Positions 2,990-24,339 of a DNA stretch of 28,253 bases are shown here, in pieces (position 1 is the stretch's first letter; every line of letters starts with the position of its first letter). The position numbers and the translations under genes were made by a program. The DNA comes from a virus (lineage: Duplodnaviria > Heunggongvirae > Uroviricota > Caudoviricetes). The notes beneath the pieces are model-generated. The model did no database searches. It was not told the origin of the DNA and worked only from the letters and a program-made list of their open reading frames with translations. Location: the IMG/VR virus record IMGVR_UViG_3300027608_000017; one strand, written 5' to 3'.

Positions 2990-3032
2990 CTACGCGATTC
3001 TGTTGAACCTGAAAGTGGAATCGGCGTAGTAA
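2990..3032 (+). promoter_or_regulatory. Inverted repeat (ctacgc-gattc ... gaatc-g-gcgtag) overlapping a candidate promoter TTGAAC-N18-TAGTAA
   Basis: AT-rich divergent intergenic region between 2945(-) and 3314(+). Hexamers at 3003-3008 and 3027-3032. Confidence 0.4.
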
Positions 3033-6249: not shown

Positions 6250-9200
6250 TTACGACACCGCGACTTTGACGCCGAACAGGAACTCGTGCGCCGTGGCGAG
6301 GTCGCGGCTGAAGTTGAACTTCTGCTTGGCTGGGTCAAACGTCTTGTTGAACGGCGACTTGACCTGATGCGGCTGGAACGGAATCCAGACGCTATGCTCG
6401 CGCTGGTTGTACTTTCCTCCGTTGTCCCGAATGCCGTCGTAGCCGTGCTGCTGGAGCGTCTGCGTCACCCAATCGGGGATGCTCGTCCAAGCGTGGGTCG
6501 TGTTGTTGGCTCTGTCGTCCGCCAGTCGCGACATGAAGTCTTTACCGCTGACGTGCCGCTTGTCCCATTGATCGGCCCCGCTCCCCTTCTTGCCTCGCTG
6601 TCGCTTCGCGGCTTGCGCGATCGCCGCGTGAACCTCGTCAGGAATCGCCGTCGTGTGGAGCGGGTTCTTGATGCTGAGGTGCATCGGGAAAATGGCCGGG
6701 TACTCGGCGTGTGGGTCGTGATGCTGCGCGCCTTCGACTCCGGCGTGCTTGAGGACATCCAGAAAACGATGCTCCTGCCCGTACAGCGAGCCGCTGTCCA
6801 GCCATGAGTCAACCAGTGCCTTCAGGGCGTTGCCGCGATGCTCCTTGATGGCGTGATCGTATCCACCGTTCCCCCTGAGATGGCCCTCGGGTCTGACCTC
6901 AAAGTTCTCGCCGGTCTCATCGTCGGTCGAAATTCGCGGCGCGAGTGCGGCAATCTTCGCCCGCTGTTCATGCGGCATCGAGTGCCAAGCGCGGTCGATG
7001 TCCATTGGCTGGCGATAGCCCTGAACGGGCAGCTTGAAGTGCTGCGCGTAATTGTCGGGCATCTCCATGCTGGTGTCTTGCTTGCCCGTGGCGTAGCCCT
7101 TGGCGATTTCCGGGTCGTCAGTGAAGAACGCCATCGGCCCCGAGGTGGCCCGCTTAGGATCGAACTTGCCGGAACCGGAGATACGATCCGCGCGTCTGGC
7201 CCCGTGGTACACCATTTTGGGCGTCCCGTCTTCGTTAATGACTTGGCTCCCGTGGTGCCACGACTTGAACTCGGGGGCTTGCGTGTAATGCACCTGCGGC
7301 GGACTGATGTCCGGCAACTTCACTCGCGACTGGCGCGGCTTCTTGGTGGGTGCTGGCGTCGCCGGGGCTGCGGGGGCGGGTTGCGGCGCGGGCTGCGGCA
7401 TCACGGGCGCTGATCCAGCGGGAACCACGGCCTCATTGCGTGCGAACTCGACTCCGGGAAGGAGCGTGCGCAGGGCGGCGAACAACGCGCGGGAAAAGCT
7501 GGTCGTGTCGTCGCCCGTGACCTTAAACGCCTTACCGGGCTTCTCGCTGATGTGGGCGTGCAGCTTGTCCAGCGGCCAATTGCTGTTCACGGTGTAGAAC
7601 ACGGCCGAGCTGCCCTTTTTGTTGATGTGAACCACGCCTTCCCGGCTCCCGATCTTCCGCTTCAGCGAGGCCAACTGAGCTTCCGTCGCTCCCTTCGACC
7701 CCCAGTGCCCGCCCCAGGTGCCGTCGTCCTTGCGGAGTGACCGGACTTCGGGGCGTTTGGTGGACTCGCGACTGCCCGACAGTTCGTGCGACGACAGCAC
7801 GCCGAACAGGTTGTCGAACGCCGCGTTGATCGACTTCCGTTCGTCACCGCTGGCTTCCGGGTACGGCTTGACGCCGAACATGCGGTACTCAGGCAAATCA
7901 TTGTGCTTCTCGTAGGCGAGGAAGTCATCGCGACCCTTGTTGCCCTTGATCTTGTCGTAGATGTACGACTCGAAGGCGCGGGCCGCCAATTCGTGGTCTT
8001 TGGCCCAGTAGTCCGCCTTGGTCCCGCGATCCATCTTCTCGGCTTCGCTCAGGAACTCGGAGCGGACGCTCTTGGTCTTCTCCTTCTGCTCGGCCGCATC
8101 CGCCAGACGGCCCTTGGATGTGGCATGGCTGGTCCGCGCCGACTCGATCTCGGCGACAAGGCCACTGAGTTTCCCGTCCGTAGCCGAGTAGCCCTTGTTG
8201 CCCCGCAGTGCCTTATGGAGATCGGACAGCTTGGCGACGTTGGCAGCCATCGAATGACCCCACTTCAGCGAGCGGCTGTTGGCGGGGGTGTCTGCGGAAC
8301 TCTGCCCGTGACGGATCATCTCGCCGCCTTCTCCCGCCAGAATCTTCGCCGACAACTCATCGACCTGCTTCAGTACCTCGTCGCTGGCCGGGAGACCGCG
8401 CTTGCCCTTGTAGTGCTGATAGCCGGTGGTCTTGCTGTAGTCGAAGGCCATCTGCCTGCGGAACTCGTCCAGCTTCCGCTGGATCGTCTCCAGATTCTGG
8501 GTGTGGTACTTCTCGTGACTGCTCGCATCTTCCTTGTACTTCATCGGCCGCGTCTTGATCGCGGACATGACCTGCGTCATCGCCTCGGCGACTTCCTTGC
8601 GGAAACCTGCCTTGGAGCCGTAAGCCCGCAGCCCACTCGATGCGTAATCGTCCTCGGCGGCCCCGCCCGTCTTGACCGTCGCGGCCCCGTCCTCGCCCGC
8701 TGTCCAGTCGCTCGACGCCTTGCCGTTCAGCCGTCCCACCCAATGGTCGAGCGCGTGCATCCACTCGTGAGCCAGCGATCCAGCCCCGTGCATCTTCGTC
8801 AGGTTGATCACGACGCCCTTGCGGTTGTAGTGCGCCCGTGCCCCAGTCAGCCCCTTGCCGTGTGAGCCGAACCCGAGACCCAAGTCCCCATCCAGTGACA
8901 GCGACTTCGCCGGAACCCCGAGGATGTCGGCCATGTCGGTGAGCGAGTCGTAGGCATGGTTCAGGATGTGTTGCCGTTCGGGCGAGTTGTTCCAGTTGCC
9001 GAACGTGACGCCCCGGAAGCCGAACTTCTGGAAGTCCGACACGTCGGCGTCTTTGCCACCCAGCCGATGCGTCTGGCCCTCGCGCACGATCTCTTCCAAG
9101 CGGGGATGGATCGAGTCCGTCAGGGCCGTCTTGGTCTCGATCAGCGACTTGGCGTTGAACGCCATGTACTTCATTGCCTCATCCTTGGACGCGAACCCGT

Positions 9201-12200
9201 CCTTCAGAACGGGCTGCTTCCGGTGAGTGATGTTGCGGTAGATGCCGTAGTTCGGCGCGTCGTCAGTGCCGTAGTTCTTGACCGAGTGTGCCCGTGCGAC
9301 TTCCGCCATCGGGATCATCGCTTCGGCTTGCTCTGGTGTGTCGAACGTCGCGATCTGCCGCTGTCGTCCGCCACCAGTGCCATCGTGGATGACCGCGTAC
9401 TTACCGTCCTTCGTCACGTTGACCGAGTAGCCCTTGCGCCAGGCGGGCTGGTCGCTTTTCTTCTTGCCGCTGGCTCCTTCGCCAACACCGGTCCACTTCT
9501 GGTCCTTCCGCGCCCCAGCCAGCTTCTCACCGAAGTCCGCGAGCCGCGACACAGTGGCGTTCTGCTCGTCTTGCGGCAGGCTCTCGGCCTCACCTTTGTC
9601 GGACGCCCCTTCGTAGCCCGGCTGATCGCCAGCCGGTGCCCTGATCGGTGCCTCGGCGGCCACGGGTGGCTTGGCGGGAGGTTCGGGTTTGTCGTCGCTC
9701 GGCCCGTAGCCCGCTGGCGTGACATCCGTGACCGACGCCCCCTTGAATCCCTTGGCTTCCATCTTCGCGACGAGGCTGGCGATGTGCTTGGCGCGGGCCT
9801 CCCCTTCTAGCCACGTCGCGTTCGATGCGGCCTTCGGTTCTTCCTTGGCAGGAGCCTCAGCCGGTGCGTCGGCGATCGACTCCAGCGGCGTCGCGTCCCC
9901 TTCCCTCTGTGGCTCATGCCCGCGTTCCCGAATCGCCTCTTCCGCCATCCGTCGAGCTTCCTTCGGATCGGGATCCGAGCGAGTGACATCCGTCCCGTCC
10001 GGCAGTGTTGCCAAGGCGTACCAGCGGTTTTTCTGCCCGTAGTTCTCCAGCGTGATCGGGATGCCGCCCGGTTTCGTTTGTTGCGGTTGCGGCGTCTCTT
10101 CGACGGTCTCCGCAGCGGCCTCTTGCGACTCGTTCTTCGGTGCGAACTCGCCCGGCTTGTACTGGTCGTGCGCCGTCTTCACCCGCACCACCTTCGACTC
10201 GTCCCACCCGAAACTCTTCTGCGACTTCACGGGCGCAACTGGCTGGTCTGCGTAGCCACCCTTGGCGTCAGCTTCAGACTCGAACGCGAACCCGACCTGA
10301 CCTTTGGAGGGCTTGATGCGGCTGAACTCGTGCGTCGCCAAGAGCCGCTTGCGCATGGTCTCGGTGGCCTTCTTGAGGTATCCGCTGACGGCCTGACGCG
10401 AGATGCCCCGCTCGTCCGCGTAGTCCGAAGCCGACTGGCCGTTGACGTGAACCCCCACGAAGGCATCTCGCTCACTGGGGGGCAGCGTCATCAGTGCCCG
10501 GTGGATGTGCTGATGCTGGCCCTCGGAGAGCTTGATGCTCTGCCGGTGCGTGTCCTTGAGGTTCGCGGCCATCGTGCTGCCGTCATCCCCGGCGATGTCG
10601 ATGCTCACCGTCTTGGCGCGCGCATTCCGTCGCGCCGACTTCTGGTGCTTGCTGTGCGCGACGTTGGTCGCCACCACATGCAGCCATGTCGAGAACTTCG
10701 CCTTGGCGGGATCGAAGCTGTCGCGGTTCTTCCAGACGCGGGTTTGCACGTCGGCAATGAAGTCGTCGAGATCAGAGTCCCGGTAGCCGAAATTCCGGCC
10801 AATGTGAGCGATCAGGCCGGACGACTTCACGAGTTGGTCGCCGACATCGCCAGCGGATGCCTCGCCCTGCACCGGAGCGGGGGCTTCCGGCTTGGGATCA
10901 CTCTTCGTCGGTGACGGTGCGGCGTGAGTCGCCTTCGGGGCGAACTCTCCGGGCTTCTTGCCGTCGTGGGCGGACGTTTCCCGCTCGATCGACTCTTCGT
11001 CGAACATCGACTTCTGATTCCGAGCGGGTTTGACGCGGGTGAATTCCAACACCACCGCCATCGCGTCGAGTTCCGCGCGCGAGAACGCCTGCACGCCTTG
11101 GGACCGCAGATGAGCCAGCCCCTGCGCGAGAGCCTCTTGGTCCGCCCCCTTGTGGTCGATGTGCAAAAAGTTGTCGTAGAGATTGACCTTCGCCCCGGAT
11201 TGCTTCAGGGACTCCACTGCGGCCCGGTGACGCTTCTGCACGCCCGTGAGTCGCACGGCACGCGGACCCACCGAATTGATGACATCCCGCTCGTGGCTCC
11301 CGGTCGTCGGCTGAATGCTGGGACCGTCGTACTGGCTGGCCACGGCCGCAATATGCTTGTGGTGCTTTGGATCGACCTGGCTCGTGTGCCGCGACAGGAT
11401 CGACGCCATCTCGCGGAAGTGATCGTCGGAGGGGTCTTCGTACTGGCTCAGTTGCACGCCACGCAGCCGATCCGCATTGAGGAAGCCGCGACCGAGCTTT
11501 TGATTGCGAGGATCACGGTCCTCGTGCGCCAGCGACCTGATGTGATGCGCGAGAACCTGCTTCTGGACATACTGGAGCGGCGTCGCCTCGGGCCGGGCTG
11601 GCGGTTTAGGGGCGGACTCCGCACCCATGTCAGGGAACGACTGTTGCCGCATCGCGCCATCCGAGAACTGCATCGCCAGCAGGAAGTTGGCCGCTTCCGT
11701 GAACTCACGGCTGAAGTGGGTCGCCCCTTCGTCGCTGTTCTGCATCCGGGCACGCAATTCGGCGGCGGCTCGCTTCTGGCCGTGCTGCTCCAGCGTGGAG
11801 ATCACCGAGGATGCCTGTGCGGCGGGAACCCGCTTCCCGGCCATGATCGCGTCCGACCACTGCTTGACCTGCTGCAACTTCTCCGGCGAGGCCGGTGCCT
11901 TCCTGAATCGGTTTGTGACAGACTGCGCGGCACGACCTACCGCATCCCCAACGGGCGCGAGCGTCCTGTCGATGGCATTGAATCCCGGCTCCAGCCGCTT
12001 GCCAACGGCGTCGGCCTTGTCCAGAAACTTGTTGCCGTACTCGTCGAACTTCTGGAAGAAGTTACCCAGCCCGCCCTCCAGATGCTCTTTCAGCTTCCCT
12101 TGCTTGGCGGCATCGAGCATCGCGGCAAAACGCTCGCGCGTCGTCGGCTTGGCGGCAGACTGCGGGTTGGACTGGTGGTAATTGCCATAGGCTTGGTCGA

Positions 12201-14220
12201 TACGTTTCCACACTTCCTCCTTGGGTATCCCCTCTTCCATCGCCCCGGCGTGTTCGAGATACTCCTTGCTGTCAGGGTGATTCAAGAACGCATTGATGGC
12301 GCTCTTTCGGGCAGCGTCGCTAAACATGCCCTTGGCGACATGAGGGCCAATCGGAGCAGACGGCGCGGACTGGTCGCCAACTGAGCCGGGCGGCGCGGTA
12401 TTTCTACCGCCGTGTTGGGTTAGCTTGGTTGCGAACAAGCCTTGATCTCGCAACTGGTCTCGCGCGTGTTCTTCATGGTCGGCGTAAATGTGCCCATTGG
12501 TTTCGAGTCCAGTGTTATCCATCGCCTCGTATTTGTAGCCGGGCTGTTTCCGTGTCGGTGGTCCCGTCTTCGCGGCCGCCCCGTAGCCCTGCGCTGTCGC
12601 TCCGTTCATGCTGCCGGAGAGAGTGCCGCTGCCGAACTCGTCGCGCATGCGATCTACTTCCGATGAAGCTGGCGCGGGCGAGGACGCTGCTGCCTTCAAC
12701 TCCGTGGCTTCAAACTTGCCGCGTCGCTCCCGTGGCTGACGAACTGCCGCCTGCTGTTGGCGCTGGCCAAGATTCCCCAAGGCGTGCATCACGTTGCCGA
12801 ACGTCGGCTGAACGAGGCCGCGCTGTTTCGATTGCCGCTGTGATTGATTCGAGGCGGGAGCCTTCGCCTGCATGTAGGGCTTGCCGTGGAAGTCCGCATA
12901 GGCGTCGAGCAGCCGCGCGTGTTGCTCCTCGGTCGAGGTCGCGTCGTTCACGCCGTGGTGTTCGATGTGCTTCTGTGCGTCGGGATGAACCGCAAACCGC
13001 CGGAGCCGATTCGGCTCAACGAGTGGCGAATACGCATCGACTGGCTTGCTCGCGCTCTTCTCGGCTGCGGTTGGCTTTGCCGATGCAATCCCGAGATACC
13101 TTGCCATGTCCGCAGGCGGCGACTCCTCTCCGGACAGCCATCTCGCCATTTGGTCGCGATGCACCGTGTTCTTGACACCCGTCTCGCGGGTGTCATCGGG
13201 TGACGATTCAATTTTCTGGCGAAACCCGTCGCGTTCTTCCTCCCTCTCGTCATCACTAAGTGAAGGGAAGTAGCCATCAGGCCGCTTCACGCCGGGCATC
13301 CTCCCTGTTGTCGGGTGGTCGCCAAGAAACTCCCGTGCATAGCGTCGATATTCGGCTGGCAGTAAAAAACCCTTGCGAGGCACCTCGCCATCCGCGACCG
13401 TGACCGGCTGCGTCGCTGGTGACACCGCCACTGGCGAGGATGGTGTCTGAGCTTGCGGCTGGGCGGAACTGGAGGCCATTCGCCGAGGGTCACGCCGTCC
13501 AGTAGCTGCCCGCGATGCCATCGCCTGCGACGGCAACACCGCCGCTTGAGTCGGCAAGGAGGGATGCGTGGCGTCAGGCGAGGCCGCTGGCGGTGTCGCA
13601 GCAGCGGCTGGTACGGCAGCTTGACTTGCGTGATGCGCCATGAAGGCCGCTTCCGCCCGCTTGTTCCATTCCTTCTTGTCGATCGAGGGGTCGTTGGCTC
13701 CGTGAGCCTGCATCAGCGACGCCGCTGCGGGGTGCGTGGCAAACGCGGCAATCGCCTTCCTGCGTTGCTCGGGCTGGCCATGCGAAACGAACCCCGGCAC
13801 CGGCACGTTCGCTGCCATCTTCGCGTTCTCGTCCACCCCGGCCTGAACCGAAGCGGCGGCATTTACCGCAGATTGTGCCGCCTTCTGGGCCTCATGCGCC
13901 TTGAGGTGTGCGCCGATTTGATCGGCGGCCTGACCGAACTGCGGGCGTTTCACCGGATGCGACTGCTGCGAAAGAATTATCTGCGCCGCCCTCATGGCGT
14001 GAATGTCGCCATCGAAAGCCTTGCCGATGTCGCCGCTGTGCGATGCGATCTGGTCAACGTGCGATTGCGCGTGCGGGATGCCGCCCCTAAACGGCGCTGC
14101 CACGGGGGCTGCTGCGGCAGCCGCCGGAGTCTTGGCGACCTGCTCTCCCGGCAAAGCAAACTCAATCGGATACGAAAATAGCGCACGCGCGGCAGCGCGA
14201 TCTTCAGGCGACAGATTCAT
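6250..14220 (-). CDS. Giant polyvalent protein B (2656 aa): 3 helical repeats, PilC/GspF-N-like motif, ECF sigma factor, LPD5-like region, HExxH peptidase, LPD1-like region, ART-PolyVal
   Basis: Uninterrupted 8-kb ORF with recognisable motifs: DFGEKLAGARKD, FRGVTFGNW, SLAHEWMHALD, ELAARAFESY, VYHG...FFT...GYDGI. Confidence 0.9.
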   Translation of the reverse strand: MNLSPEDRAAARALFSYPIEFALPGEQVAKTPAAAAAAPVAAPFRGGIPHAQSHVDQIASHSGDIGKAFDGDIHAMRAAQIILSQQSHPVKRPQFGQAADQIGAHLKAHEAQKAAQSAVNAAASVQAGVDENAKMAANVPVPGFVSHGQPEQRRKAIAAFATHPAAASLMQAHGANDPSIDKKEWNKRAEAAFMAHHASQAAVPAAAATPPAASPDATHPSLPTQAAVLPSQAMASRAATGRRDPRRMASSSAQPQAQTPSSPVAVSPATQPVTVADGEVPRKGFLLPAEYRRYAREFLGDHPTTGRMPGVKRPDGYFPSLSDDEREEERDGFRQKIESSPDDTRETGVKNTVHRDQMARWLSGEESPPADMARYLGIASAKPTAAEKSASKPVDAYSPLVEPNRLRRFAVHPDAQKHIEHHGVNDATSTEEQHARLLDAYADFHGKPYMQAKAPASNQSQRQSKQRGLVQPTFGNVMHALGNLGQRQQQAAVRQPRERRGKFEATELKAAASSPAPASSEVDRMRDEFGSGTLSGSMNGATAQGYGAAAKTGPPTRKQPGYKYEAMDNTGLETNGHIYADHEEHARDQLRDQGLFATKLTQHGGRNTAPPGSVGDQSAPSAPIGPHVAKGMFSDAARKSAINAFLNHPDSKEYLEHAGAMEEGIPKEEVWKRIDQAYGNYHQSNPQSAAKPTTRERFAAMLDAAKQGKLKEHLEGGLGNFFQKFDEYGNKFLDKADAVGKRLEPGFNAIDRTLAPVGDAVGRAAQSVTNRFRKAPASPEKLQQVKQWSDAIMAGKRVPAAQASSVISTLEQHGQKRAAAELRARMQNSDEGATHFSREFTEAANFLLAMQFSDGAMRQQSFPDMGAESAPKPPARPEATPLQYVQKQVLAHHIRSLAHEDRDPRNQKLGRGFLNADRLRGVQLSQYEDPSDDHFREMASILSRHTSQVDPKHHKHIAAVASQYDGPSIQPTTGSHERDVINSVGPRAVRLTGVQKRHRAAVESLKQSGAKVNLYDNFLHIDHKGADQEALAQGLAHLRSQGVQAFSRAELDAMAVVLEFTRVKPARNQKSMFDEESIERETSAHDGKKPGEFAPKATHAAPSPTKSDPKPEAPAPVQGEASAGDVGDQLVKSSGLIAHIGRNFGYRDSDLDDFIADVQTRVWKNRDSFDPAKAKFSTWLHVVATNVAHSKHQKSARRNARAKTVSIDIAGDDGSTMAANLKDTHRQSIKLSEGQHQHIHRALMTLPPSERDAFVGVHVNGQSASDYADERGISRQAVSGYLKKATETMRKRLLATHEFSRIKPSKGQVGFAFESEADAKGGYADQPVAPVKSQKSFGWDESKVVRVKTAHDQYKPGEFAPKNESQEAAAETVEETPQPQQTKPGGIPITLENYGQKNRWYALATLPDGTDVTRSDPDPKEARRMAEEAIRERGHEPQREGDATPLESIADAPAEAPAKEEPKAASNATWLEGEARAKHIASLVAKMEAKGFKGASVTDVTPAGYGPSDDKPEPPAKPPVAAEAPIRAPAGDQPGYEGASDKGEAESLPQDEQNATVSRLADFGEKLAGARKDQKWTGVGEGASGKKKSDQPAWRKGYSVNVTKDGKYAVIHDGTGGGRQRQIATFDTPEQAEAMIPMAEVARAHSVKNYGTDDAPNYGIYRNITHRKQPVLKDGFASKDEAMKYMAFNAKSLIETKTALTDSIHPRLEEIVREGQTHRLGGKDADVSDFQKFGFRGVTFGNWNNSPERQHILNHAYDSLTDMADILGVPAKSLSLDGDLGLGFGSHGKGLTGARAHYNRKGVVINLTKMHGAGSLAHEWMHALDHWVGRLNGKASSDWTAGEDGAATVKTGGAAEDDYASSGLRAYGSKAGFRKEVAEAMTQVMSAIKTRPMKYKEDASSHEKYHTQNLETIQRKLDEFRRQMAFDYSKTTGYQHYKGKRGLPASDEVLKQVDELSAKILAGEGGEMIRHGQSSADTPANSRSLKWGHSMAANVAKLSDLHKALRGNKGYSATDGKLSGLVAEIESARTSHATSKGRLADAAEQKEKTKSVRSEFLSEAEKMDRGTKADYWAKDHELAARAFESYIYDKIKGNKGRDDFLAYEKHNDLPEYRMFGVKPYPEASGDERKSINAAFDNLFGVLSSHELSGSRESTKRPEVRSLRKDDGTWGGHWGSKGATEAQLASLKRKIGSREGVVHINKKGSSAVFYTVNSNWPLDKLHAHISEKPGKAFKVTGDDTTSFSRALFAALRTLLPGVEFARNEAVVPAGSAPVMPQPAPQPAPAAPATPAPTKKPRQSRVKLPDISPPQVHYTQAPEFKSWHHGSQVINEDGTPKMVYHGARRADRISGSGKFDPKRATSGPMAFFTDDPEIAKGYATGKQDTSMEMPDNYAQHFKLPVQGYRQPMDIDRAWHSMPHEQRAKIAALAPRISTDDETGENFEVRPEGHLRGNGGYDHAIKEHRGNALKALVDSWLDSGSLYGQEHRFLDVLKHAGVEGAQHHDPHAEYPAIFPMHLSIKNPLHTTAIPDEVHAAIAQAAKRQRGKKGSGADQWDKRHVSGKDFMSRLADDRANNTTHAWTSIPDWVTQTLQQHGYDGIRDNGGKYNQREHSVWIPFQPHQVKSPFNKTFDPAKQKFNFSRDLATAHEFLFGVKVAVS
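6300..7310 (-). other. ART-PolyVal-like ADP-ribosyltransferase domain with an insertion (protein B C-terminus)
   Basis: TQAPEFKSWHHGSQVINEDGTPKMVYHG...MAFFTDDPEIAKGYA...HLSIKNPL...HGYDGI...FQPHQVKS. Confidence 0.75.
7795..9545 (-). other. LPD5-like / zincin HExxH / LPD1-like module
   Basis: DFGEKLAGARKD at ~9500-9545, HEWMH at 8755-8769, YWAKDHELAARAFESY...ERKSINAAFDNLF at ~7800-8010. Family numbers are recalled, not searched. Confidence 0.65.
10345..10848 (-). other. ECF-type sigma-70 domain (regions 2 and 4) inside protein B
   Basis: Region 2: DDFIADVQTRVWKNRDSFDPAKAKFSTWLHVVATN. Region 4: ALMTLPPSERDAFVGVHVNGQSASDYADERGISRQAVSGYLKKATETMRKRL. Confidence 0.8.
12421..12540 (-). other. PilC/GspF N-terminal-like motif inside protein B
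   Basis: GYKYEAMDNTGLETNGHIYADHEEHARDQLRDQGLFATKL. Confidence 0.65.
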
Positions 14221-14264
14221 GCTCGGCCCCGAATCCAGTGGAAATGTCTTGACGATTCCGCCAG

Positions 14265-14292
14265 ATCATACCACGCACGGGGCGGCAAACAA
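14265..14292 (-). promoter_or_regulatory. Candidate sigma70 promoter for protein B (extended -10 TGGTATGAT, weak -35 TTGTTT)
   Basis: Lies in the 88-bp gap upstream of ATG 14220. Confidence 0.45.
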
Positions 14293-14308: not shown

Positions 14309-14533
14309 TCAGTCGCCGTCGAACGGATAGAACACGACGCCGCCATAGCCGCTGTCTGGCTCACCCGCACCGCACTCAGGGCAGGTCTCCCACGAAAACG
14401 ACAGGTGGTCTCGGATGGAGTATTTGATGTGCGTCAGTTCAGATTCATTCGCCAGAACAACGGCCCCGCACGAAACGCAATCGCCGCTCCACGCCTCGCC
14501 CGTTTCCGGTTGTCCTTCTCGCAACACTCGCAT
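14309..14533 (-). CDS. Small Zn-ribbon protein
   Basis: CVSC...CPEC. AAGGAAAGG RBS before ATG 14533. Confidence 0.7.
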   Translation of the reverse strand: MRVLREGQPETGEAWSGDCVSCGAVVLANESELTHIKYSIRDHLSFSWETCPECGAGEPDSGYGGVVFYPFDGD

Positions 14534-14550
14534 CCGCCAAACACCTTTCC

Positions 14551-14826
14551 TTAATCGCCGTCGCCGGACTTCCAATCGTCCGTCTCGTGCTGCTCAAACC
14601 GCTGGAGTGCGTCTGCCAGCTCGGCCAAGTAGCCTCCGGGGGCACGGTCCAAGACCTGCAACGCGATCTGAATCCGGTCCACAATCGGGACTTTTTGCCA
14701 GCACTTCTGGCAGATTTCCACGCCCGCCGCGCCGCAGTGACTGGATTGGTTCAGCGGCTGCTGACAGGACCAGCACGCGGGGTCTCCGTGCGGATTCTGC
14801 GGCGGCGGCTTGCGGTGGTGAAACAT
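14551..14826 (-). CDS. Small Zn-finger-like protein
   Basis: CWSC...CQKC followed by a helical tail. Confidence 0.6.
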   Translation of the reverse strand: MFHHRKPPPQNPHGDPACWSCQQPLNQSSHCGAAGVEICQKCWQKVPIVDRIQIALQVLDRAPGGYLAELADALQRFEQHETDDWKSGDGD

Positions 14827-14856: not shown

Positions 14857-17800
14857 TCAATCCCTCGCCGCCGCATCGGCGAGCATCAACTCAAATGCCT
14901 CGATCTCGTCCCGAGAAAACTCCCTCGGCGTCTTCGGCTTCCGAAAGAACGAGGCCACCTTCGAGATAAGCGAAGAGGTCTTCGACGGCGCTGGCGGCTG
15001 GGGTGTCGCTGGCTTCGGCAGTGACGGACTGGGCGGGGACGGCTTGAAGGTCAGCTTGCCGGGGTCGTATCCGTCCAGTCTTTCGGCGGGCCTGCCGGTG
15101 GTGGTGCCCGGCGCGAGTTCCGATTTGCGGCCCTGAAAACTGCGCTCGATGTAGTGTTCGCCCTTGAACCCGCGCCGCAACGACGCCGCGCGAGGAATGT
15201 AGTCCGTCGCGCCGGTCCCGGCCAACGAGAACGGGTACTGATGAGCGACCTTGCTTCCGCGCACGCGGAGCCGATCCCACACGAATCCGCCCTTGCTCGG
15301 GGCCGCTTCCATCCCCTCATAGACCGACTTTGGCGTCCCGATGTACCGATAGACCGGGCCGCTGCCGCCCTCCTTGTTCTTGTACCGGACGATCATGTTG
15401 CCTTGACCTTCGTTGCCCTGTTTTTCCCACGAATAACTGTGGACGTTACTCGATTCGACCGGGACTTCCGGCGACCACTTCGACTCGTGGACCTGCTCCG
15501 GCTCGTCTCCCGCCGGGGCCGAGGAAGGCGGCGTCTGTGGCGTCGGCGGTGTCGGCTTCTTGCGGAACCAGTCCATCAACCCGAACTCGACCGGCGCAAA
15601 GTCGGCGAGATCGCGGGAGAACTCTTCCGAATCGGCCGCGAACTCCACCGGGCCGATGCTGTCGAGCGAGCGCGAGAACTCGGCGGGCTTGATCGCGTCG
15701 CGAACCTGCTCGTCGGTGAACGTCTCGTACTTGCCGTCGGCGTTCTTCTTGACCCAGCCGTCGCCTGCCTTGACCTTCTTGCCCTCGGCGGTGCGTCCGT
15801 CGAATTTGTTGCCGAAGTAGCCGTGCTGACGGGCCTCGGCGGGGCTGATGAGCGGAGCCGGAACGAGCGCGGCGAGCATGTCCGAGTATTTCTTCAGTCG
15901 CGGAATGAACCCTCCTTTGTCCTGCTTGTGCGTATCGTTCATCAGCTCCGAGAGCAGTTCCTGAACGTAGTGCGAACCGGGGACGAGCTTTTCGTGGGCC
16001 TTGTATATCCGTGGCTTGCCGCTCGCCCATCTGTCGGCTCGATTGTGGAGTTCGTTCTTCTCCCATTCAATGTCGTCGGCGGATCGCCGAGACCCGTAAT
16101 GCGACTTTTTCCATTCCTCATCCGTGATCGCCGCATCTCGTTCGATAATAGGCTTCCATGCTGCTTCCATGCTGCTGTGGACCTCTGGCTCAAGTCGATC
16201 CTTCAGCTTCGCGATCCCCTCCTTGCCGATCTTCTCCGCAAGACGCAGCCACTCATCGAGAATCGGTGTGGCCCCCTCGTATCGAGGCTCGGCCTTCAGG
16301 TCGAGCAACCGCCCCAGTGGCCCGCTGGCGATCTCGTTCCACTGCCGCTGTTCTTCCCGTCGCTCCTTCTCGGCGGCGATCTCATCGGGGGTCATCTCCA
16401 CCCGCTTCTCGCGCTGGCGTCCGTTCTCGTTCGGCTTCGGTGGCGTGAACAAGTCGCCCTTGGACTTCTCCCGCTTCGGTTTGAGCTTCTTGGCCGCTTG
16501 GCTGTCGATGCCGTGGATCGGCATGAACCTGCCGCCGATGTAGAACACGCCGTTGACTTCGGAGACCTTGCCACCGATCGGTGCGCGGAGCTGCCAGTCG
16601 CCGTTCTTGAGACGGCGCACTTCCCCGCCGCCGTGCTTGGCTGACAGGGCTTTGGCTTCCTCGTGATGCTCGGGCGGCACGTCCGATTCCTGCACGTCGA
16701 AGAGTTGGTCTTGCTTCGTGGCGACGTTCTCACCGGGTGCGTCGTCGAGGTGTGATTCGACCGGGGACTCGAAGTCGAACGCGACCTGCCCCTTGGCGGG
16801 CTTACGGGCGAACTCGACGGGACCGAACTCTTCGGAATCTCCGAATAGTTCAACCGGCCCAAAGTCGTCTTCGCGAGAGAACGACTGCGGCTTCTCTGCC
16901 TTCTTCGACTCCGGAAGCGACCGCAGGATCTCGTCCACTTCGCCGATCAGCTTGCGGGCCTCTTCGGCATTCCGCTTCGTCCATGCCGTGATCGCGGCGT
17001 CCTTCGAGGCGTCATAGTGGGCCGTGCTGTCCTTGTAGCCGCGCGTCGCGTCGATGTAGTTCCGGCTCACGATCTTCTTGCCCGCGTGCGTCACCGGCGC
17101 ACCCGACGAGTTGTAGAGCAGCTTCTTCAACTGCCCGTAGACCGTGTTGATCTTGGCAGCGGCGGACTCGAACGCCTTGCGCTGCGCTGCCGTGATTTCG
17201 TTGTGGTTCTTCACGCCCGACTCGGCCATGATCTTCCAGAACGGTGCGCTGGAGCCGAGGTGCGTGTGGTGCTGGCCGTGCTTGTCGGTGTCGCCGAACC
17301 GATGCCCCAGCGTGTCGAACGTCTCCCACACATTGGAGAGGAAGTCGCGATTCGCGGCCCAGACCGCCTTCTTGGCGAGGCGTTCCCCGGAATCTCCTTC
17401 CCCGAACTTCGTGACGCATTCCGAGCCGACGCCCATCGTCCACTTCTCGGCATCGTTCTGGATGTAGTAGATGTTTTTGATGTCGTGCCCACACAGTCCG
17501 CAGCAGGCGGATTGAGGGCCACCGTCCCAGACCACGGGAACCGGCTTGTAGCCCGATGGCATCTCGAATTCGGGGACGGTGACGCCCTCGCCTTTGTCGC
17601 CTTCGACTTCCTTCATTCCCTTGACCGCCACGGCGGACCAGCCCTGTGGAGCCGTTCCGGTGTAGAGGTACGTCGCATGAACCATCTCGTCGTGACTCAG
17701 GCCTTTGTCGCCCGACTTGTTGGCCGACGCCTTGGCAATGGCCTCGCGCTTCGTCAGCCCCGCCGGGCCAGCTTGCGGTTTCTCTTCTGGCTTTCCGTCA

Positions 17801-20800
17801 GACTTTGCGTCACGTTTTTCTGACGCAAACCCCGACGCCTCGTGCTGCTCGCGCTGCTCGTCCGTCAGGTAGAACCGCACGTTGTGGTGTTCCGGCCCCG
17901 TGCGGCTGATGGCATCCGCATCCACCAGCGACTTGAGGGCGCGTGTCGTCGGGTTAGCCAGTGGGTCGAGCGCGTCGTGATCCGTGTGCCCCGTGTGGTG
18001 GTGGATGTCGGGCAGGCCAAATTGCCCGCCGTTCATCAGGTAGTTCTTGATCTGGTGATGCAGCTTGTCCGCGAACCGCCCTGCATCGTCGCGCGGGTGG
18101 GCCTCTTCGTCCCAATCGAACGCGCCTTGGCCGGTGGCGGGTTTGCGCGAGAACTGGTTCGTCTCTGCGTCGTGAGGAATCGTAATTCCGAACTTCTGTT
18201 GCAGTGGGACGACTCCACCAGACTCATCCCGATCAAATGCGTAGGCGGACTTGCCTTCGTAGTTGGCGGGGTGGCGAATCATCGCCTCGCGTGTCCGGAA
18301 GTCCTTGTTTCGACCAGCGTTTGCGTGGTATCCGAGTCCGCCATAGAACCGCTTCAACCTGCCGACCGACGACGCACCGAATGAATCGTCCGGCGTCAAC
18401 AAGACGCGCATTCCGTGCTTGTCGGCAAACCCATGCAGGTCATTCATGTAGGCCGTCCCTCGCCCTTGTCCGCGATGCTCCTTGGGCACCTTGACTGAAT
18501 GGAGTGTGATGTCTCCATTCTTGGCGCTCGCGAAACTTTCGACACCCGCCTCGCCCCACTTATCTCGGTGCGACTTGAGGGCGACGTTCGTTGCGTGGTC
18601 AACGTGTTTTTGCGCCGCGTGATTATCTCCGCTTGCCACTGCGTCGGAGTATCTCTGCTCGAATGGATGCGGAACCTCACTGTCACGCGACATCTGGACG
18701 GTTGACGGCGGACGTTGCGAAACCTGATACGTGGGTTTCCCAGACCACTTTTCTAGCTGCTCCCGCGCGGCGTCGTGCATCCCCCACTCGTCGTGTCCTT
18801 CCGGGTCTTGGGTCTCCGTGGCACCGCCGAACCCCTTCGGTTTGATGCTCAACCCCCTCGCGGACGAGTGTAGTTTATGCTGCGACTGCCAGGCTTCCTC
18901 TGGCGTCATGCCCTTCGAGTCTAAGACATCATGGAGCATCTGCCTGTATTTCGAGGCTTTGTCGAGTTGCTTCGGCCTCGTGTATTTGATGCCGTGCTTC
19001 TCAGCCAGTCTGCTCAGTTCGCTGAAGTCGTCGTCTTCGCGGTTGTGGCCATACGCGCCGTCCCGTTCAGGATCGAGCGCACTCACGCTGCCGACATCGT
19101 AGATCGCCGCGTTGCCGTTGTGGTCGAGTCCGGCCTGAACTTGATCGCCCAGCCTGTACCCGGCGCTGTGCATCCCCGAGAGCGTGTCCTGCAACTGCTG
19201 GATGTGCTTTTCGGTGAGCGGCGATGTCGTGTCCACCTTGGGCATCACAGCGAACGACCGCCCGTCATGGTTGACCCCGTACTGCGGCAGAATCCCGAGA
19301 ACGCCCTTGGAGCGGAGGTGCTTCGTGGCCTTGACTGAGTTGTCGATGATCGCGTTCGCTGCGTCTGGACTGCGTAGCCCGTTGCCCTCATGGTACGGAG
19401 TGATGACCGCCGCCTTCACGACCGTGCCGTTTCCGGCATCGTAGACCGCGTTGTCGTTCCCCTTGCCGATGTACTTCCCGCCGCCCGACAGGACGTGGTC
19501 GAGTGTCTTGTGGCCCGAGTTGGCGGGATGGCCCAGGTGCCCGTGGAGTTCATCCAAAAATCGCTCGACGTGCTGCGTTGGCGCGCGGAACTTCGACCAG
19601 TCCTTCCCGGCGTGGTCGAGGGTCACAAAATGCGTCAATCCGTCAGTCTTGCCCGTCTTGAGCGTCGCTCGGAACGGCGCGTTGGTGCGAGTCTCGGGGA
19701 TGTCCACTTGCCGCGTGCCGTCGTGTGCCGTCTCAATCTGCGGGCGTTTCGACTTCACGGCGTCGAACGGCAATTCCTGCTGCCCCGGCAGTGGCGATCG
19801 CCCGAACTCGACCGGCCCGAAGTCGCGGCTGAAGGTGATGCGGTTGTCCTGCGGGTCGAACGCCCCGCTGTTGCCGATGGCGGACTTGATCTGGTGGGGA
19901 TGGAAGGCGATGTGAAAGTCGTGTTCGCCAGATCGAGGGGCAAGCGGAGCGTCCATCTGCGTCTGCTTAATTGTGATTCCATCGAAGCCCTTCTTCGCCA
20001 TGTGCTGCCTGAAGTTCGCGAAGTCGTCTCGCGTCAGATGGCGAGGATGCGTGGCGGTGCTGCCGAAATGCTGTTGCACGACGGGAAGAATCCAGTCCCG
20101 CTTCATGGCGTGAAACGGGTCTTTCTCAAGGTCGCCACGCGTGTCACCGTCGTTGTAAACGCGAACTCGCTGGCCGTTGAGGTTCTCGTGCCTGTAGTCG
20201 CCCGCGTGCGGCTCGATAATGAGCGGCTTCTTAACGCTCAGGTAGACCGGCTTGATGTGCTGCCCGTGGCCTTGTCCGAACTCGCCAGCGACCTCTGGTT
20301 TGTTTGTGAAATAGTGCCCAAGCGCCGTTGTGCTGGCGGATGTCGTCCCGCCGAGCGCGTCGTCACTGAACTCGTCAAACAGCGCGTTCGTCCCGTGATA
20401 GACCACCTTGGGCGTCCCGTCTTCGTGAACCACATGGCTCCCCTCGTGCCACTTCTTGAACGCTGGTGTCTGCGTGTGGTGGACCTGACTCGGCGGATCA
20501 GCGCTAAACTCCACCGGCCCAAAGTCGCGGCTGAAGTTGGTCGAGTTTTCGCTCACCGTGTCGATTTGCTTCGGGTGAAACGCGACGATTTCATTGCGGC
20601 GAGCCACCCCCTCTGGTGACACCGAGTGGGAGATAACGCCGTCGTGTCCGTGTTTCGTCAGTGCATCCGTGAACTTCTGTGGCCCGTAGTGAAGGATCGC
20701 GAGTCGCAAGTTGCCCTTCTGCTTCAAGGCCGCAGAGAACTCAGGGTCTCCGATGGCGTTATCAACATGCGAGTTTTCCGCTGCCTCTCGTTTCTTCCAT

Positions 20801-23800: not shown

Positions 23801-24339
23801 CTGCTATTGAGCTTTGAGGGATCGAACTCTCTCAGGAAATCCACATAGGCTTCGTTGGTGTTACCCGTGGAGTGTCGAGGCCAGCCGATTCTCGCCGTCC
23901 CGAGTGGATGATCCTCGTAGTCAAGCGTCGGCCCCACGACATCGTGCATCTGGCTGCTGGGGGCGACATATCTGGCGCGCCGCGCCAGTTCGTCCGGATG
24001 CGTCTCCAGCACACTCTTGACGGCGGCGGGCGGGATGTTGAACCGCTGGGCAACAGCGTGATGCACCGGCGAGAACTCTTCGGCCTGTTCGTGAAACGCG
24101 AACTCCCCCTGCCCCGGCAGCGGCTTGGGCTTCTTCGCCTCCTCATCGGCGATTGACTCCAGCAGTGACGGCCGGGGAGCCACTGGCGTCTTCGGACGAC
24201 CCGGCGACGGCGCGCGTGGGGCGGCACTCGCCCCAAACAGCGACTTCTGCCCCGGCAGTGCGCCTTGGGAGAACTCCACAGAATCGCCCGTACAGTTCTG
24301 AAAAACAGCGGCGAGGGCGTCGAGATCGAGGTGGCTCAT
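14857..24339 (-). CDS. Giant polyvalent protein A (3160 aa): ParB-like, 3x ART-PolyVal, kinase, GNAT, wHTH-like, Zn site, KTSC
   Basis: Uninterrupted 9.5-kb ORF with domain motifs separated by FSR..GPVEF linkers. Confidence 0.9.
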   Translation of the reverse strand: MSHLDLDALAAVFQNCTGDSVEFSQGALPGQKSLFGASAAPRAPSPGRPKTPVAPRPSLLESIADEEAKKPKPLPGQGEFAFHEQAEEFSPVHHAVAQRFNIPPAAVKSVLETHPDELARRARYVAPSSQMHDVVGPTLDYEDHPLGTARIGWPRHSTGNTNEAYVDFLREFDPSKLNSSEHEQSADYERAHMKKSGSVTAYVNWLKDGHKPPPISVYDVDGKPGVMQSSNRRRLLAAQMSGAKSITGWHGTSNPETGNPLNYGDIMRAAKDHETQSFSRDDEFGPVEFGRSHTLPTQPFRRLIDKKRTHHDVLKEEEKAGKKKKAPTDNGESGWTKVGGSSVHVDDDGVIDKGCPGLLGEEVEDLIDESDESRERREARQHHAYAAGVRGHELTPAQAKALGSDEHVAAYRRDMAAAKTHPVPTVSAIDVARGFDDQTGLPITSRPVTAAHSVPRDGGNGHELRIEDDARTAETEERLAQQPAETFQPAPELDPRAKPYQFWKQNPLSQILGNDLPRPSWLGDRPQPDHAAGEKLEPQLEQMEAEIARIRELRDAFLSKRVDIAALKANGYSSAEIAQAGVKEALNNKLEPLVEARNTVKAQLDDYLRQTRPDYQRQQDIARHKEVERRLWERGAEEDSAVRRAAKVYGADIDEVIASIPRAMVAYAEANFPLEAAKAEARRLTGLNAHTIRSVEDEIPDGDIKADSLLRTHPELGWQYGDTDNQRKMVELIREGSAQMPSRTSSEIADLAASMVVGGRPRDFSTEGIHFRDDSEDESLSDSDEWSPAGDTAETSFDPSSWSRSDSVESIAAALGVSVSAIQAVIQDMPGSRADGLASLARLARDPSRRGVVRSREGHVIGYVTRNGNQLTFRDGNSRFLGTATHGHDRATFRDRRGHVGGSVGQFSRSLDEIGPVEFSADPPSQVHHTQTPAFKKWHEGSHVVHEDGKPKVVYHGTRSPIEAFDKSKTSPGWHSVGGSFFFSETPSLANEYAGTTNAEEGGNVIPAYLSLKNPYRAESLGPLIRQFGAHGHADARAHLEKQGHDGMILGSGENKTIAAFHPHQIKSAIGNSGAFDPQDNRITFSRDFGPVEFSVSDHGALVEPDGSPSVVYHGTNASFSGFDASRAGARSGNLGHLGFGHYFYAKGGNPKQWGNRVIAAKVRLQTPLNIHETSSLHPEWKKREAAENSHVDNAIGDPEFSAALKQKGNLRLAILHYGPQKFTDALTKHGHDGVISHSVSPEGVARRNEIVAFHPKQIDTVSENSTNFSRDFGPVEFSADPPSQVHHTQTPAFKKWHEGSHVVHEDGTPKVVYHGTNALFDEFSDDALGGTTSASTTALGHYFTNKPEVAGEFGQGHGQHIKPVYLSVKKPLIIEPHAGDYRHENLNGQRVRVYNDGDTRGDLEKDPFHAMKRDWILPVVQQHFGSTATHPRHLTRDDFANFRQHMAKKGFDGITIKQTQMDAPLAPRSGEHDFHIAFHPHQIKSAIGNSGAFDPQDNRITFSRDFGPVEFGRSPLPGQQELPFDAVKSKRPQIETAHDGTRQVDIPETRTNAPFRATLKTGKTDGLTHFVTLDHAGKDWSKFRAPTQHVERFLDELHGHLGHPANSGHKTLDHVLSGGGKYIGKGNDNAVYDAGNGTVVKAAVITPYHEGNGLRSPDAANAIIDNSVKATKHLRSKGVLGILPQYGVNHDGRSFAVMPKVDTTSPLTEKHIQQLQDTLSGMHSAGYRLGDQVQAGLDHNGNAAIYDVGSVSALDPERDGAYGHNREDDDFSELSRLAEKHGIKYTRPKQLDKASKYRQMLHDVLDSKGMTPEEAWQSQHKLHSSARGLSIKPKGFGGATETQDPEGHDEWGMHDAAREQLEKWSGKPTYQVSQRPPSTVQMSRDSEVPHPFEQRYSDAVASGDNHAAQKHVDHATNVALKSHRDKWGEAGVESFASAKNGDITLHSVKVPKEHRGQGRGTAYMNDLHGFADKHGMRVLLTPDDSFGASSVGRLKRFYGGLGYHANAGRNKDFRTREAMIRHPANYEGKSAYAFDRDESGGVVPLQQKFGITIPHDAETNQFSRKPATGQGAFDWDEEAHPRDDAGRFADKLHHQIKNYLMNGGQFGLPDIHHHTGHTDHDALDPLANPTTRALKSLVDADAISRTGPEHHNVRFYLTDEQREQHEASGFASEKRDAKSDGKPEEKPQAGPAGLTKREAIAKASANKSGDKGLSHDEMVHATYLYTGTAPQGWSAVAVKGMKEVEGDKGEGVTVPEFEMPSGYKPVPVVWDGGPQSACCGLCGHDIKNIYYIQNDAEKWTMGVGSECVTKFGEGDSGERLAKKAVWAANRDFLSNVWETFDTLGHRFGDTDKHGQHHTHLGSSAPFWKIMAESGVKNHNEITAAQRKAFESAAAKINTVYGQLKKLLYNSSGAPVTHAGKKIVSRNYIDATRGYKDSTAHYDASKDAAITAWTKRNAEEARKLIGEVDEILRSLPESKKAEKPQSFSREDDFGPVELFGDSEEFGPVEFARKPAKGQVAFDFESPVESHLDDAPGENVATKQDQLFDVQESDVPPEHHEEAKALSAKHGGGEVRRLKNGDWQLRAPIGGKVSEVNGVFYIGGRFMPIHGIDSQAAKKLKPKREKSKGDLFTPPKPNENGRQREKRVEMTPDEIAAEKERREEQRQWNEIASGPLGRLLDLKAEPRYEGATPILDEWLRLAEKIGKEGIAKLKDRLEPEVHSSMEAAWKPIIERDAAITDEEWKKSHYGSRRSADDIEWEKNELHNRADRWASGKPRIYKAHEKLVPGSHYVQELLSELMNDTHKQDKGGFIPRLKKYSDMLAALVPAPLISPAEARQHGYFGNKFDGRTAEGKKVKAGDGWVKKNADGKYETFTDEQVRDAIKPAEFSRSLDSIGPVEFAADSEEFSRDLADFAPVEFGLMDWFRKKPTPPTPQTPPSSAPAGDEPEQVHESKWSPEVPVESSNVHSYSWEKQGNEGQGNMIVRYKNKEGGSGPVYRYIGTPKSVYEGMEAAPSKGGFVWDRLRVRGSKVAHQYPFSLAGTGATDYIPRAASLRRGFKGEHYIERSFQGRKSELAPGTTTGRPAERLDGYDPGKLTFKPSPPSPSLPKPATPQPPAPSKTSSLISKVASFFRKPKTPREFSRDEIEAFELMLADAAARD
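15265..15470 (-). other. KTSC domain
   Basis: VESSNVHSYSW...IVRYK...VYRYIGTPKSVYEGMEAAPSKGGFVWDRLR. Confidence 0.75.
18265..18565 (-). other. GNAT acetyltransferase domain
   Basis: ITLHSVKVPKEHRGQGRGTAYM (motif A)...LKRFYGGLGY. Confidence 0.8.
19080..19500 (-). other. Protein-kinase-like domain
   Basis: YIGKGNDNAVY (Gly loop), VVK, MHSAGYRLGD (catalytic Asp), IYDVG (DFG-like). Confidence 0.65.
19804..19907. repeat. 104-bp direct repeat, copy A (copy B at 21058-21161)
   Basis: 5 mismatches, all at synonymous third codon positions. Encodes FHPHQIKSAIGNSGAFDPQDNRITFSRDFGPVEF. Confidence 0.95.
20423..20520. repeat. 98-bp perfect direct repeat, copy 1 (copy 2 at 21500-21597)
   Basis: Identical DNA encoding GPVEFSADPPSQVHHTQTPAFKKWHEGSHVVHE. 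Confidence 0.95.
21058..21161. repeat. 104-bp direct repeat, copy B
   Basis: See 19804-19907. Confidence 0.95.
21500..21597. repeat. 98-bp perfect direct repeat, copy 2
   Basis: See 20423-20520. Confidence 0.95.
23590..23800 (-). other. ParB/Srx-like domain (degenerate)
   Basis: KDGHKPPPISVYDVDGKPGVMQSSNRRRLLAAQMSGAKSITGW resembles P.PI.V......[DN]G.[HR]R..AA...G...I. Confidence 0.5.

Follow-up and report, generated by a model that had tools for sequence, protein, structure and literature searches.

A complete sigma factor of the extracytoplasmic function (ECF) type was found inside P0001, a protein of 2,656 amino acids (aa) encoded by a temperate phage (IMG/VR record IMGVR_UViG_3300027608_000017). 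The window, which is the whole stretch of 28,253 nucleotides analysed here, corresponds to bases 25973-54225 of a virus genome which is complete (112,930 bp) and has direct terminal repeats, and the sigma domain lies on its minus strand at 10345-10848 (P0001 residues 1125-1292; the folded sigma covers residues 1125-1295). The domain is flanked by short peptides, here called joints, and similar peptides recur in a second giant protein and in a likely prohead protease of the same phage. Our best explanation of the whole, which we put forward tentatively, is that the sigma factor is released from P0001 and re-aims the host RNA polymerase. Positions are those of the window unless given as genome positions.

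The embedded sigma factor and its relatives

The sigma domain was recognised by the Pfam profile Sigma70_r2 (PF04542) with 41.2 bits against a cut-off of 24 (residues 1135-1197) and by the NCBIfam profile TIGR02937 (sigma70-ECF) with 62.5 bits against a cut-off of 42.9, the latter match covering profile positions 11-165 of 165 and scoring 63.4 bits in a repeat profile search of the genome. An AlphaFold2 model of the sigma region, built from an alignment of 63 sequences, had a mean predicted local distance difference test score (pLDDT) of 84 and consisted of two helical domains with pLDDT > 90 (residues 1125-1202 and 1233-1295), separated by a disordered linker of 30 residues. The best 25 Foldseek matches in the PDB were all ECF sigmas (SigH, RpoE/sigmaE, CnrH, SigL, AlgU and SigW) and none belonged to groups 1-3; overall TM-scores were low because the two sigma domains hinge freely.

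All parts of the cassette are encoded on the minus strand. Sigma domain 2, the core-binding and -10 recognition domain (residues 1125-1202; 10615-10848), carries DLDDFIADVQTRVW and FSTWLHVVATN, was modelled with pLDDT 95-98 and aligns to CnrH, SigW and SigG1. Sigma domain 4, the helix-turn-helix for the -35 element (residues 1233-1295; 10336-10524), contains LPPSERD...ISRQAVSGYLKKA and was modelled with pLDDT 90-97; its recognition helix reads AVSGYL and is without the usual K/R pair, the equivalent being VKTRI in SigW and, closer to our sequence, AVEGRI in CnrH. Between the two domains there is only the flexible linker (residues 1203-1232; 10525-10614; pLDDT 55-65), which TIGR02937 spans as one match of ECF length, and both a sigma-3 domain and region 1.1 are absent. 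The domain is preceded by a Pro/Ala-rich spacer (residues 1097-1124; 10849-10932; pLDDT 52-74). ECF sigmas are usually, though not by definition, encoded by a separate gene which commonly lies beside an anti-sigma gene, and this one is embedded in a frame of 2,656 aa; when we looked for an internal translation start ahead of the sigma, the only methionine was M1072, which has no Shine-Dalgarno sequence. With sigma-2 and sigma-4 both intact and the length of an ECF sigma, residues 1125-1295 are, on sequence and model, a genuine complete ECF-type (group 4) sigma factor, for which binding to core polymerase is predicted. The proposal in an earlier note on this DNA, that a complete ECF sigma lies within the giant protein, is thus upheld by the TIGR02937 match, the two confidently modelled domains and the 25 ECF fold matches.

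Four relatives from European Nucleotide Archive metagenomes carry the same sigma cassette at 88-90% identity, in giant proteins of 1,690-3,014 aa. The ratio of nonsynonymous to synonymous substitution rates (dN/dS) of the sigma core was 0.13 at a dS of 0.30 (171 codons, compared with two relatives), within the range of 0.04-0.18 seen for all tested P0001 modules against a relative: 0.07-0.09 for the zincin and ADP-ribosyltransferase (ART) modules, 0.07 for the LPD5-like region and 0.18 for the module at residues 838-1057. In an alignment of five relatives (A1) the folded sigma core was almost invariant, changes were concentrated in the linkers and the Pro/Ala-rich spacer was the most variable stretch. 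The sigma cassette is maintained by purifying selection.

A tblastn search of the sigma against 50,697 phage records returned weak matches only, to free sigmas of Lak megaphages and to two gut contigs, and no embedded relative. An exhaustive phmmer search with P0001 residues 1100-1300 against 1.8 billion protein representatives found, beyond close kin, best matches which were again long proteins with an internal sigma, at 27-40% identity. Their architectures are diverse: a Mu-type portal (Portal_Mu) plus sigma in P0011; InPase, sigma and topoisomerase IB (TopoIB) in P0012; sigma and LPD1 in P0008; DnaJ, sigma and LPD38 in P0062; and sigma, methyltransferase and ddrB-ParB in P0033. One entry in the match list, the eukaryotic Ki-67-like P0028, was rejected as a low-complexity false match.

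Four of the genes for these proteins lie in head modules. P0011 is the portal gene itself, between the terminase and Mu gpT capsid genes, and the genes for P0012, P0008 and P0033 each directly follow a Mu-type portal gene in the head module, the slot in which head-internal, ejected proteins of the MuF/gp7 type are encoded. The P0062 gene closes a structural block beside an integrase, and P0007, a further relative, is known from a 4.9-kb contig without gene context. With four members which are the portal gene or directly follow one, the sigma lineage shows a repeated tie to the capsid. A tree of 63 sigma domains was made by a quick maximum-likelihood search and rooted at the midpoint; in it 12 of the 13 embedded domains fell into one clade of 17 (Shimodaira-Hasegawa-like approximate likelihood ratio test, SH-aLRT, 96), five short members of which may be fragments, and the 44 free cellular ECFs and the phage's own free sigma (described below) fell outside it. 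The label 'embedded' required 5 changes on the tree compared with 12 in shuffles, and none of 500 shuffles was as low. This is a recurrent lineage of embedded sigmas across unrelated contigs and not a one-off. The literature searched, which took in the main text of PMC5512222, yielded no account of a sigma lying within a virion protein or a polyvalent protein.

Joint peptides and a predicted prohead protease

The earlier note had placed the peptides EFTR and EFSR on either side of the sigma, each followed by a ..DE.S..AHD..KPGEFAPK motif, and both are exactly there. The upstream joint E-F-T-R (residues 1059-1062; 11035-11046, minus strand) lies within VVLEFTRVKP, which is invariant in five relatives despite a synonymous GAA/GAG change. 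In the downstream joint E-F-S-R (residues 1298-1301; 10318-10329, minus strand) FSR is invariant, is preceded by E or Q and is kept through changes between the codons AGC CGC and AGT CGA. The motif after the first joint, FDEES..AHD..KPGEFAPK (residues 1073-1096; 10933-11004, minus strand), is a degenerate form of DE..HPR...G.F and reads FDEESHPR...GEF in relatives, and the motif after the second, WDESK..AHD..KPGEFAPK (residues 1339-1362; 10135-10206, minus strand), leads the next module.

Joints of this kind are far more frequent than expected from shuffled sequences. Across P0001, the sister giant protein P0002 (3,160 aa) and a protein of about 330 aa (P3), FSR occurs 18 times (1.0 expected), PVEF 9 times (0.04 expected) and EF[STAG]R 9 times (0.30 expected). 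The full form of the joint is FSR[DS]-x-GPVEF[SGA], contracted to E-F-[ST]-R around the sigma, and each ART domain of P0002 lies exactly between joints. Joints are often followed by KP..GQ..F.[WF][DE]E..HPR...G.F, and such a motif follows joints in P0002 and P3 too; the HPR motif also stands beside the sigma in the distant P0012 and P0105, and between the portal and sigma domains in P0011. No DNA direct repeat shared by the two sigma flanks was found, which disfavours a recent DNA duplication as the origin of the joints. Because no DNA repeat is shared and FSR is kept through synonymous codon changes, conservation is at the level of the peptide, which is itself under selection. In the relative P0003 (1,690 aa) an N6-adenine methyltransferase module (NPPF motif, residues ~1480-1690) takes the place of all that follows WDESK, and the common FSRDLATAHEF tail comes after it; as the module is swapped exactly at the WDESK joint, joints are also points of module exchange. 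Cutting at both joints around the sigma would give a fragment of 239 aa (residues 1063-1301) with a calculated mass of 26 kDa and a pI of 9.3, in agreement with the ~240 aa put forward previously.

When all open reading frames (ORFs) of the genome were scanned for joint peptides, one further ORF stood out, at genome 7390/7735-9048 on the plus strand, with three FSR and two EFSR. It directly precedes the gpD-like and gpE-like head genes, where modules of the lambda type have their protease/scaffold gene. PF10123 Mu-like_Pro is carried by its look-alikes in the Atlas (score 0.94; 63 of 100 matches), and in BFVD its structural matches bear the names peptidase, capsid maturation protease, scaffolding protein and prohead protease. 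Residues 1-142 were compared with 48,161 PDB chains in a fold scan made independently of Foldseek; the top match was T4 gp21 (Z 7.7, root-mean-square deviation 3.4, 106 residues) and the second best was varicella-zoster virus (VZV) assemblin (Z 7.0). A tblastn search of this protein against phage records gave no match. On its predicted fold and its position, this ORF likely encodes a gp21/assemblin-like prohead protease fused to a scaffold.

The three FSR sites of this protein were invariant in 15 homologues (47-98% identity). They comprise LAFSR right after the protease domain, KYEFSRQ, and (E/Q)FSR near the C-terminus, and the third site shows, ahead of FSR, the alternation of E and Q which is also seen at the downstream joint of the sigma. 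A (H/Q)EFSA site is also conserved in the homologues, a GCYVSPKF motif with a conserved Ser is invariant in them, and four of them have an extra EHEFSREEF insert. A further relative, G001 (64.7 kb, 55% complete), has four FSR in its protease; its sequence includes neither a giant FSR protein nor a sigma and is uninformative on this point. The shared FSR peptide links the joints to capsid maturation. Proteases of the gp21 type (T4, phiKZ, SPN3US) cleave themselves at domain borders and cut scaffold and head cargo at a short consensus (PMC9026906, PMC10052503, PMC7411985), and by this analogy the simplest reading of the sequences is that FSR/EF[ST]R marks the cleavage sites of the prohead protease, which would place the giant proteins in the prohead. 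FSR could also be a docking or targeting peptide for the capsid and not a scissile site; such a peptide would still link the giant proteins with the capsid, yet leave the sigma unreleased.

Proposed release of the sigma factor and alternative explanations

The explanation which we prefer has three steps, held with different confidence. In the first, the EF[ST]R and FSR..PVEF joints would be cut by the phage's prohead protease, freeing the basic sigma of residues 1063-1301, and the cut may fall between E and F, after the glutamate, by analogy with Glu-specific gp21-type proteases. We lean towards accepting that the joints are processing sites of this protease. In the second step cutting would take place in the prohead and the sigma would be head cargo which is ejected with the DNA; we regard packaging and ejection as plausible but tentative. 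In the third the sigma would join the host core RNA polymerase and direct it to a class of phage promoters, the sole candidate found for which is T[GT]AAC[CA]-N15-CGTAGTA, and early re-aiming of the polymerase at such AAC-N16-CGTA promoters is the most doubtful of the steps. Control of the embedded sigma would be by its proteolytic release from the polyprotein. It is also rather doubtful, if conceivable, that this phage and a wider lineage of phages pack an ECF sigma into the capsid in a polyprotein which is diced by the prohead protease, and that the sigma so freed enters with the genome to re-aim the polymerase before any phage gene is expressed.

The candidate promoter element had been pointed out earlier as TGAACC..CGTA at 3004-3028, and it proved to be one of three near-identical copies in the genome. 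The first (TGAACC-N15-CGTA, equivalent to AAC-N16-CGTA; 3004-3028, plus strand) stands at the head of a small operon which includes a gene like that of a DNA methylase. The second (genome 55472, minus strand) lies 1.2 kb past the end of the window and heads the block which runs through dnaB to the giant genes, and the third is at genome 55900 on the minus strand; each of these matches at 21 of 25 positions. Every copy lies between genes and points towards those downstream, the second and third being followed by a Shine-Dalgarno sequence and ATG, and the common form of the three is T[GT]AAC[CA]-N15-CGTAGTA. The first copy is kept in two relatives, but the whole surrounding region is kept too. 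Promoters of B. subtilis sigmaW have the form tgaAAC...CGTA, and spacers in the family range from 14 to 17 (PMC5758882). The element, which matches this AAC..CGTA grammar of ECF promoters, is a candidate promoter which could be read by the embedded sigma or by a free one.

The free sigma is a second ECF sigma of 188 aa (genome 88216-88782, minus strand; TIGR02937 62.9 bits), and its gene lies between exonuclease and sliding-clamp-like genes and heads into two small genes. It shares 33% identity with the embedded sigma over 54 residues only, and its sigma-4 helix, EVKRRSL, has kept the basic residues found in ECFs which read AAC, among them SigW (VKTRI). The programme of the phage may involve two sigmas.

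Several observations weigh against the preferred explanation. The assignment of the protease is likely rather than proven because its model has a low pLDDT of 58 and the Z scores are below 8, and no match to Pfam was obtained with this protein singly or across its 15 homologues, nor any to PHROGs. The profile check which the earlier note had called for succeeded for Sigma70_r2 and failed narrowly for Sigma70_r4_2 (PF08281), which scored 24.5 bits over residues 1239-1285, 1.2 below its cut-off of 25.7 (the related profile Sigma70_r4 gave 18.5 bits on sigma domain 4); the relatives P0007-P0009 reached 31-40 bits with Sigma70_r4_2, over the cut-off. The second and third copies of the promoter element are a local duplication, 428 nt apart and with shared upstream coding-derived sequence, so that there are effectively two independent copies. 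A search for a shared promoter motif, which the earlier note had also proposed, yielded these copies and no wider family: exact dyads (5-mer, N14-19, 4-mer) in 71 upstream regions were no more frequent than in shuffles (maximum 5 compared with 4-6), and k-mer enrichment returned only a palindromic operator-like element and no promoter class. The AAC..CGTA element may be read by the free sigma, which has the more canonical helix and is, on a weak cue, no worse a candidate: EVKRRSL keeps basic residues where the embedded sigma has AVSGYL. P0001 and P0002 lie at the 3' end of a replication/recombination block, an early/middle-type context and not the head module, and the P0001 gene is thus outside the packaging or late-gene context of polyvalent proteins. 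Any cutting could also be done inside the infected cell by the HExxH peptidase of P0001 itself.

The two last points belong to the chief rival, in which P0001 is an intracellular polyprotein and not virion cargo: its gene would be transcribed along with the replication genes once infection has begun, the product would be cut in the cytoplasm by its own zincin or by a host protease, or stay uncut, and the sigma would work as free-standing sigmas do in other phages and switch the polymerase to middle or late genes. The 32-kb minus-strand block runs in the order RecE/RecT, DnaB, P3, P0002 and P0001, so that the RecE/RecT and DnaB genes precede that of P0001 on the strand which they share, and a copy of the ECF-like promoter heads the block. 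The phage already has a free sigma, and the known phage ECF-like sigmas, phiEco32 gp36 and 7-11 gp47, are middle-gene products which drive late transcription (PMC8948821, PMC4281155). Against this rival stand the joint peptide, which the giant proteins have in common with the prohead protease/scaffold specifically and which does not vary in the latter, and the sigma-lineage relatives fused to the portal or encoded directly after it; nor is it evident why a sigma produced inside the cell would have to be part of a chain of 2,656 aa with an ADP-ribosyltransferase. We consider it unlikely on the whole.

Next comes the possibility that the sigma is a docking device or a decoy, which either tethers the ART and other effectors of the giant protein to core polymerase or competes with host sigmas to shut off host transcription. 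ART-PolyVal is present in the same chain and three more such domains in the neighbouring P0002, and the packaged ART of T4, Alt, modifies the host polymerase (PMC5512222). The absence of the K/R pair from the recognition helix AVSGYL, and the failure of the dyad and k-mer searches to tie a promoter class to the embedded sigma, also agree with such a role. However, sigma-4 is as conserved as sigma-2 and has pLDDT > 90, the partners vary across relatives (InPase, TopoIB, DnaJ, methylase, portal) with no constant effector, and a co-oriented ECF-type promoter element is present in the genome, which together make a docking or decoy role improbable. That the domain is a functionless passenger, a host ECF sigma gene swept into a visibly mosaic gene whose modules are swapped, can be set aside as most unlikely given its low dN/dS, a folded core nearly invariant in five relatives whose linkers vary, and its place in an old lineage of embedded sigmas at 27-40% identity.

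Two observations on upstream regions are of another kind. An operator-like inverted repeat, AATGGAA-N10-11-TTCCA(T), occurs in two divergent intergenic regions (genome ~19150-19175 and 89664-89690), and CAATGGAA is found at four places in the genome, all of them upstream of genes.

Polyvalent proteins, genome setting and known systems

P0001 (6250-14220) and P0002 (14857-24339, upstream of P0001) are the largest ORFs of the window, both on the minus strand. P0001 is a single open frame with Pfam matches to LPD1, ART-PolyVal and Sigma70_r2. Its cassette is preceded by a module of about 220 aa (residues 838-1057; 11050-11709, minus strand) between the FSR at residue 836 and EFTR, which precedes the sigma in all five relatives; it had no Pfam match, and its Atlas look-alike score of 0.78 was uninformative. 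Further along the minus strand are an LPD5-like region (8041-9543) with the zincin motif HEWMHALDH (HExxH at 8743-8769), which is P0001's own predicted metallopeptidase and in tblastn matched LPD5/LPD1/LPD38 proteins of phages and plasmids, an LPD1 domain (7789-8031; PF18796, 61 bits), and a C-terminal ART-PolyVal ADP-ribosyltransferase module with an FSRD...EF tail (6301-7236; PF18760, 47 bits), a tail which is common to P0002 and the distant P0007. P0001 thus joins several disparate activities in one chain (sigma, zincin HExxH, LPD1 and ART-PolyVal), has the signature LPD or metallopeptidase (MPTase) hub domains (PF18796, PF18760, HEWMHALDH) and is encoded by a complete virus genome, and it is a polyvalent protein of the type described by Iyer, Burroughs, Anand, de Souza and Aravind in 2017 (PMC5512222).

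P0002 contains three ART-PolyVal domains bracketed by 10 FSR joints, a KTSC domain and a sub-threshold GNAT-like match (13.7 bits, cut-off 30). The KTSC domain is near its C-terminus (residues 2962-3021; 15277-15456, minus strand), and two distant phages with sigma-bearing giant genes (L024 and L026) have the KTSC domain encoded separately, between terminase and portal. P3 (24346-25383, minus strand), the third FSR-bearing protein, has three FSR, GPVEF and a WNEADHPR...GEF motif; its ORF and dnaB are upstream of the two giant genes on the same strand. In the N-terminal third of P0001 (residues ~150-700; 12700-13800, minus strand) a unit of ~40 residues is repeated at least 3 times; it has the form F..HP....(Y/H)(L/I)E.(H/A)G...... 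and continues into an acidic/aromatic helix with H at its end. P0001 and P0002 each start with a leader of ~20 residues, which has (I/V)EF[AS] at its end and is followed by LPG(E)Q (14140-14220 and 24240-24339, minus strand), and these leaders recall the short capsid-targeting leaders which are removed by T4 gp21. A candidate sigma-70-like pair, TTGTTT-N16-TATGAT (14235-14270, minus strand), lies ~40 nt before the start codon of P0001. The gap between the two giant genes holds two small ORFs (88 and 91 aa; 14309-14826, minus strand) which overlap, are rich in Cys and have CxxC pairs; the 91-aa ORF is conserved in L001 and L002, two of the relatives.

Outside the window the genome encodes the large terminase (genome 110171-111811), gpD-like decoration, gpE-like major capsid and Mu gp36-like proteins (genome 9117-12109), a tail fibre, an integrase and RecE/RecT. 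The sole Portal_Mu-like signal of the genome is weak (genome 19836-21107, plus strand; 20.1 bits, cut-off 23.9) and lies ~9 kb downstream of the capsid gene, for which reason the head module seems to be split or rearranged.

New in this analysis are the embedded nearest relatives and their portal context, the link between FSR and the protease/scaffold, two further copies of the promoter element and the free sigma. Phages are known to secure early transcription by two routes, injecting their own RNA polymerase (N4, phiKZ) or injecting enzymes which modify that of the host (T4 Alt). We know of no phage for which a sigma packaged with the DNA has been shown to re-aim the host polymerase. If the preferred explanation is true, an injected sigma would be a cheaper third route, would account for the start of the programme in a phage with early promoters unlike those of sigma-70, and would add a basal transcription factor to the list of polyvalent-protein cargo. 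The FSR joint common to the giant proteins and the protease/scaffold is a concrete candidate for the cleavage code of a phage polyprotein, which would serve capsid targeting or programmed release of cargo, and the presence of a free and an embedded sigma in one genome offers a natural two-sigma cascade to dissect.

Polyvalent proteins are predicted to be processed, often by zincin domains, and to be delivered with the DNA to protect it and give transcription or replication a jump start (PMC5512222). Like P0001 they are giant chains of unrelated activities in mosaic modules, including LPD1, ART-PolyVal and a zincin HExxH. The term sigma, as word or Greek letter, does not appear in the main text of that description, where takeover is ascribed to an N4-type RNA polymerase and protein-modifying enzymes, and P0001 differs from the proteins described in having a regular short joint peptide which is shared with a prohead protease/scaffold.

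The closest parallel to the proposed processing is found in T4, with Alt and the internal proteins cut by gp21, and in phiKZ and SPN3US, with ejection proteins cut by gp245, where a protease of the assemblin fold trims cargo in the prohead at a short consensus before this cargo is ejected (PMC10052503, PMC7411985, PMC9026906). The likely protease of our phage resembles gp21 in its predicted fold. Cargo in those phages is cut once or a few times near the end, whereas 5-10 joints per chain would dice the polyprotein into separate enzymes, and the putative consensus, E-F-[STAG]-R or FSR..GPVEF, is unlike theirs.

The embedded domain resembles cellular ECFs (B. subtilis SigW, E. coli sigmaE, C. 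metallidurans CnrH and M. tuberculosis SigH) in its sigma-2 and sigma-4 domains, length, FSTWL..ATN signature and fold, and the candidate promoter has the AAC-N16-CGTA grammar of SigW (PMC5758882). Unlike them, it has no separate gene and no adjacent anti-sigma gene, and it belongs to a separate clade made up mostly of embedded phage domains. Among phage proteins, phiEco32 gp36 and gp47 of Salmonella phage 7-11 are likewise group-4-like sigmas which re-aim the host core polymerase at phage promoters, those of 7-11 being bipartite with a 16-nt spacer (PMC8948821). They are, however, small separate products of middle genes, act on late genes and have no joints, and the only trace of such free ECF-like sigmas in virions is a single peptide in SU10 particles, where it was found alongside many non-structural proteins (PMC4281155). 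In phage N4 and its kin, too, a transcription protein, the virion RNA polymerase (gp50 in N4), is part of a giant virion protein which bears a zincin, and after its injection it transcribes the early genes (PMC5512222). N4 brings a whole single-subunit polymerase which is packaged unprocessed, whereas the phage described here would bring the promoter-recognition subunit only and borrow the core enzyme of its host.

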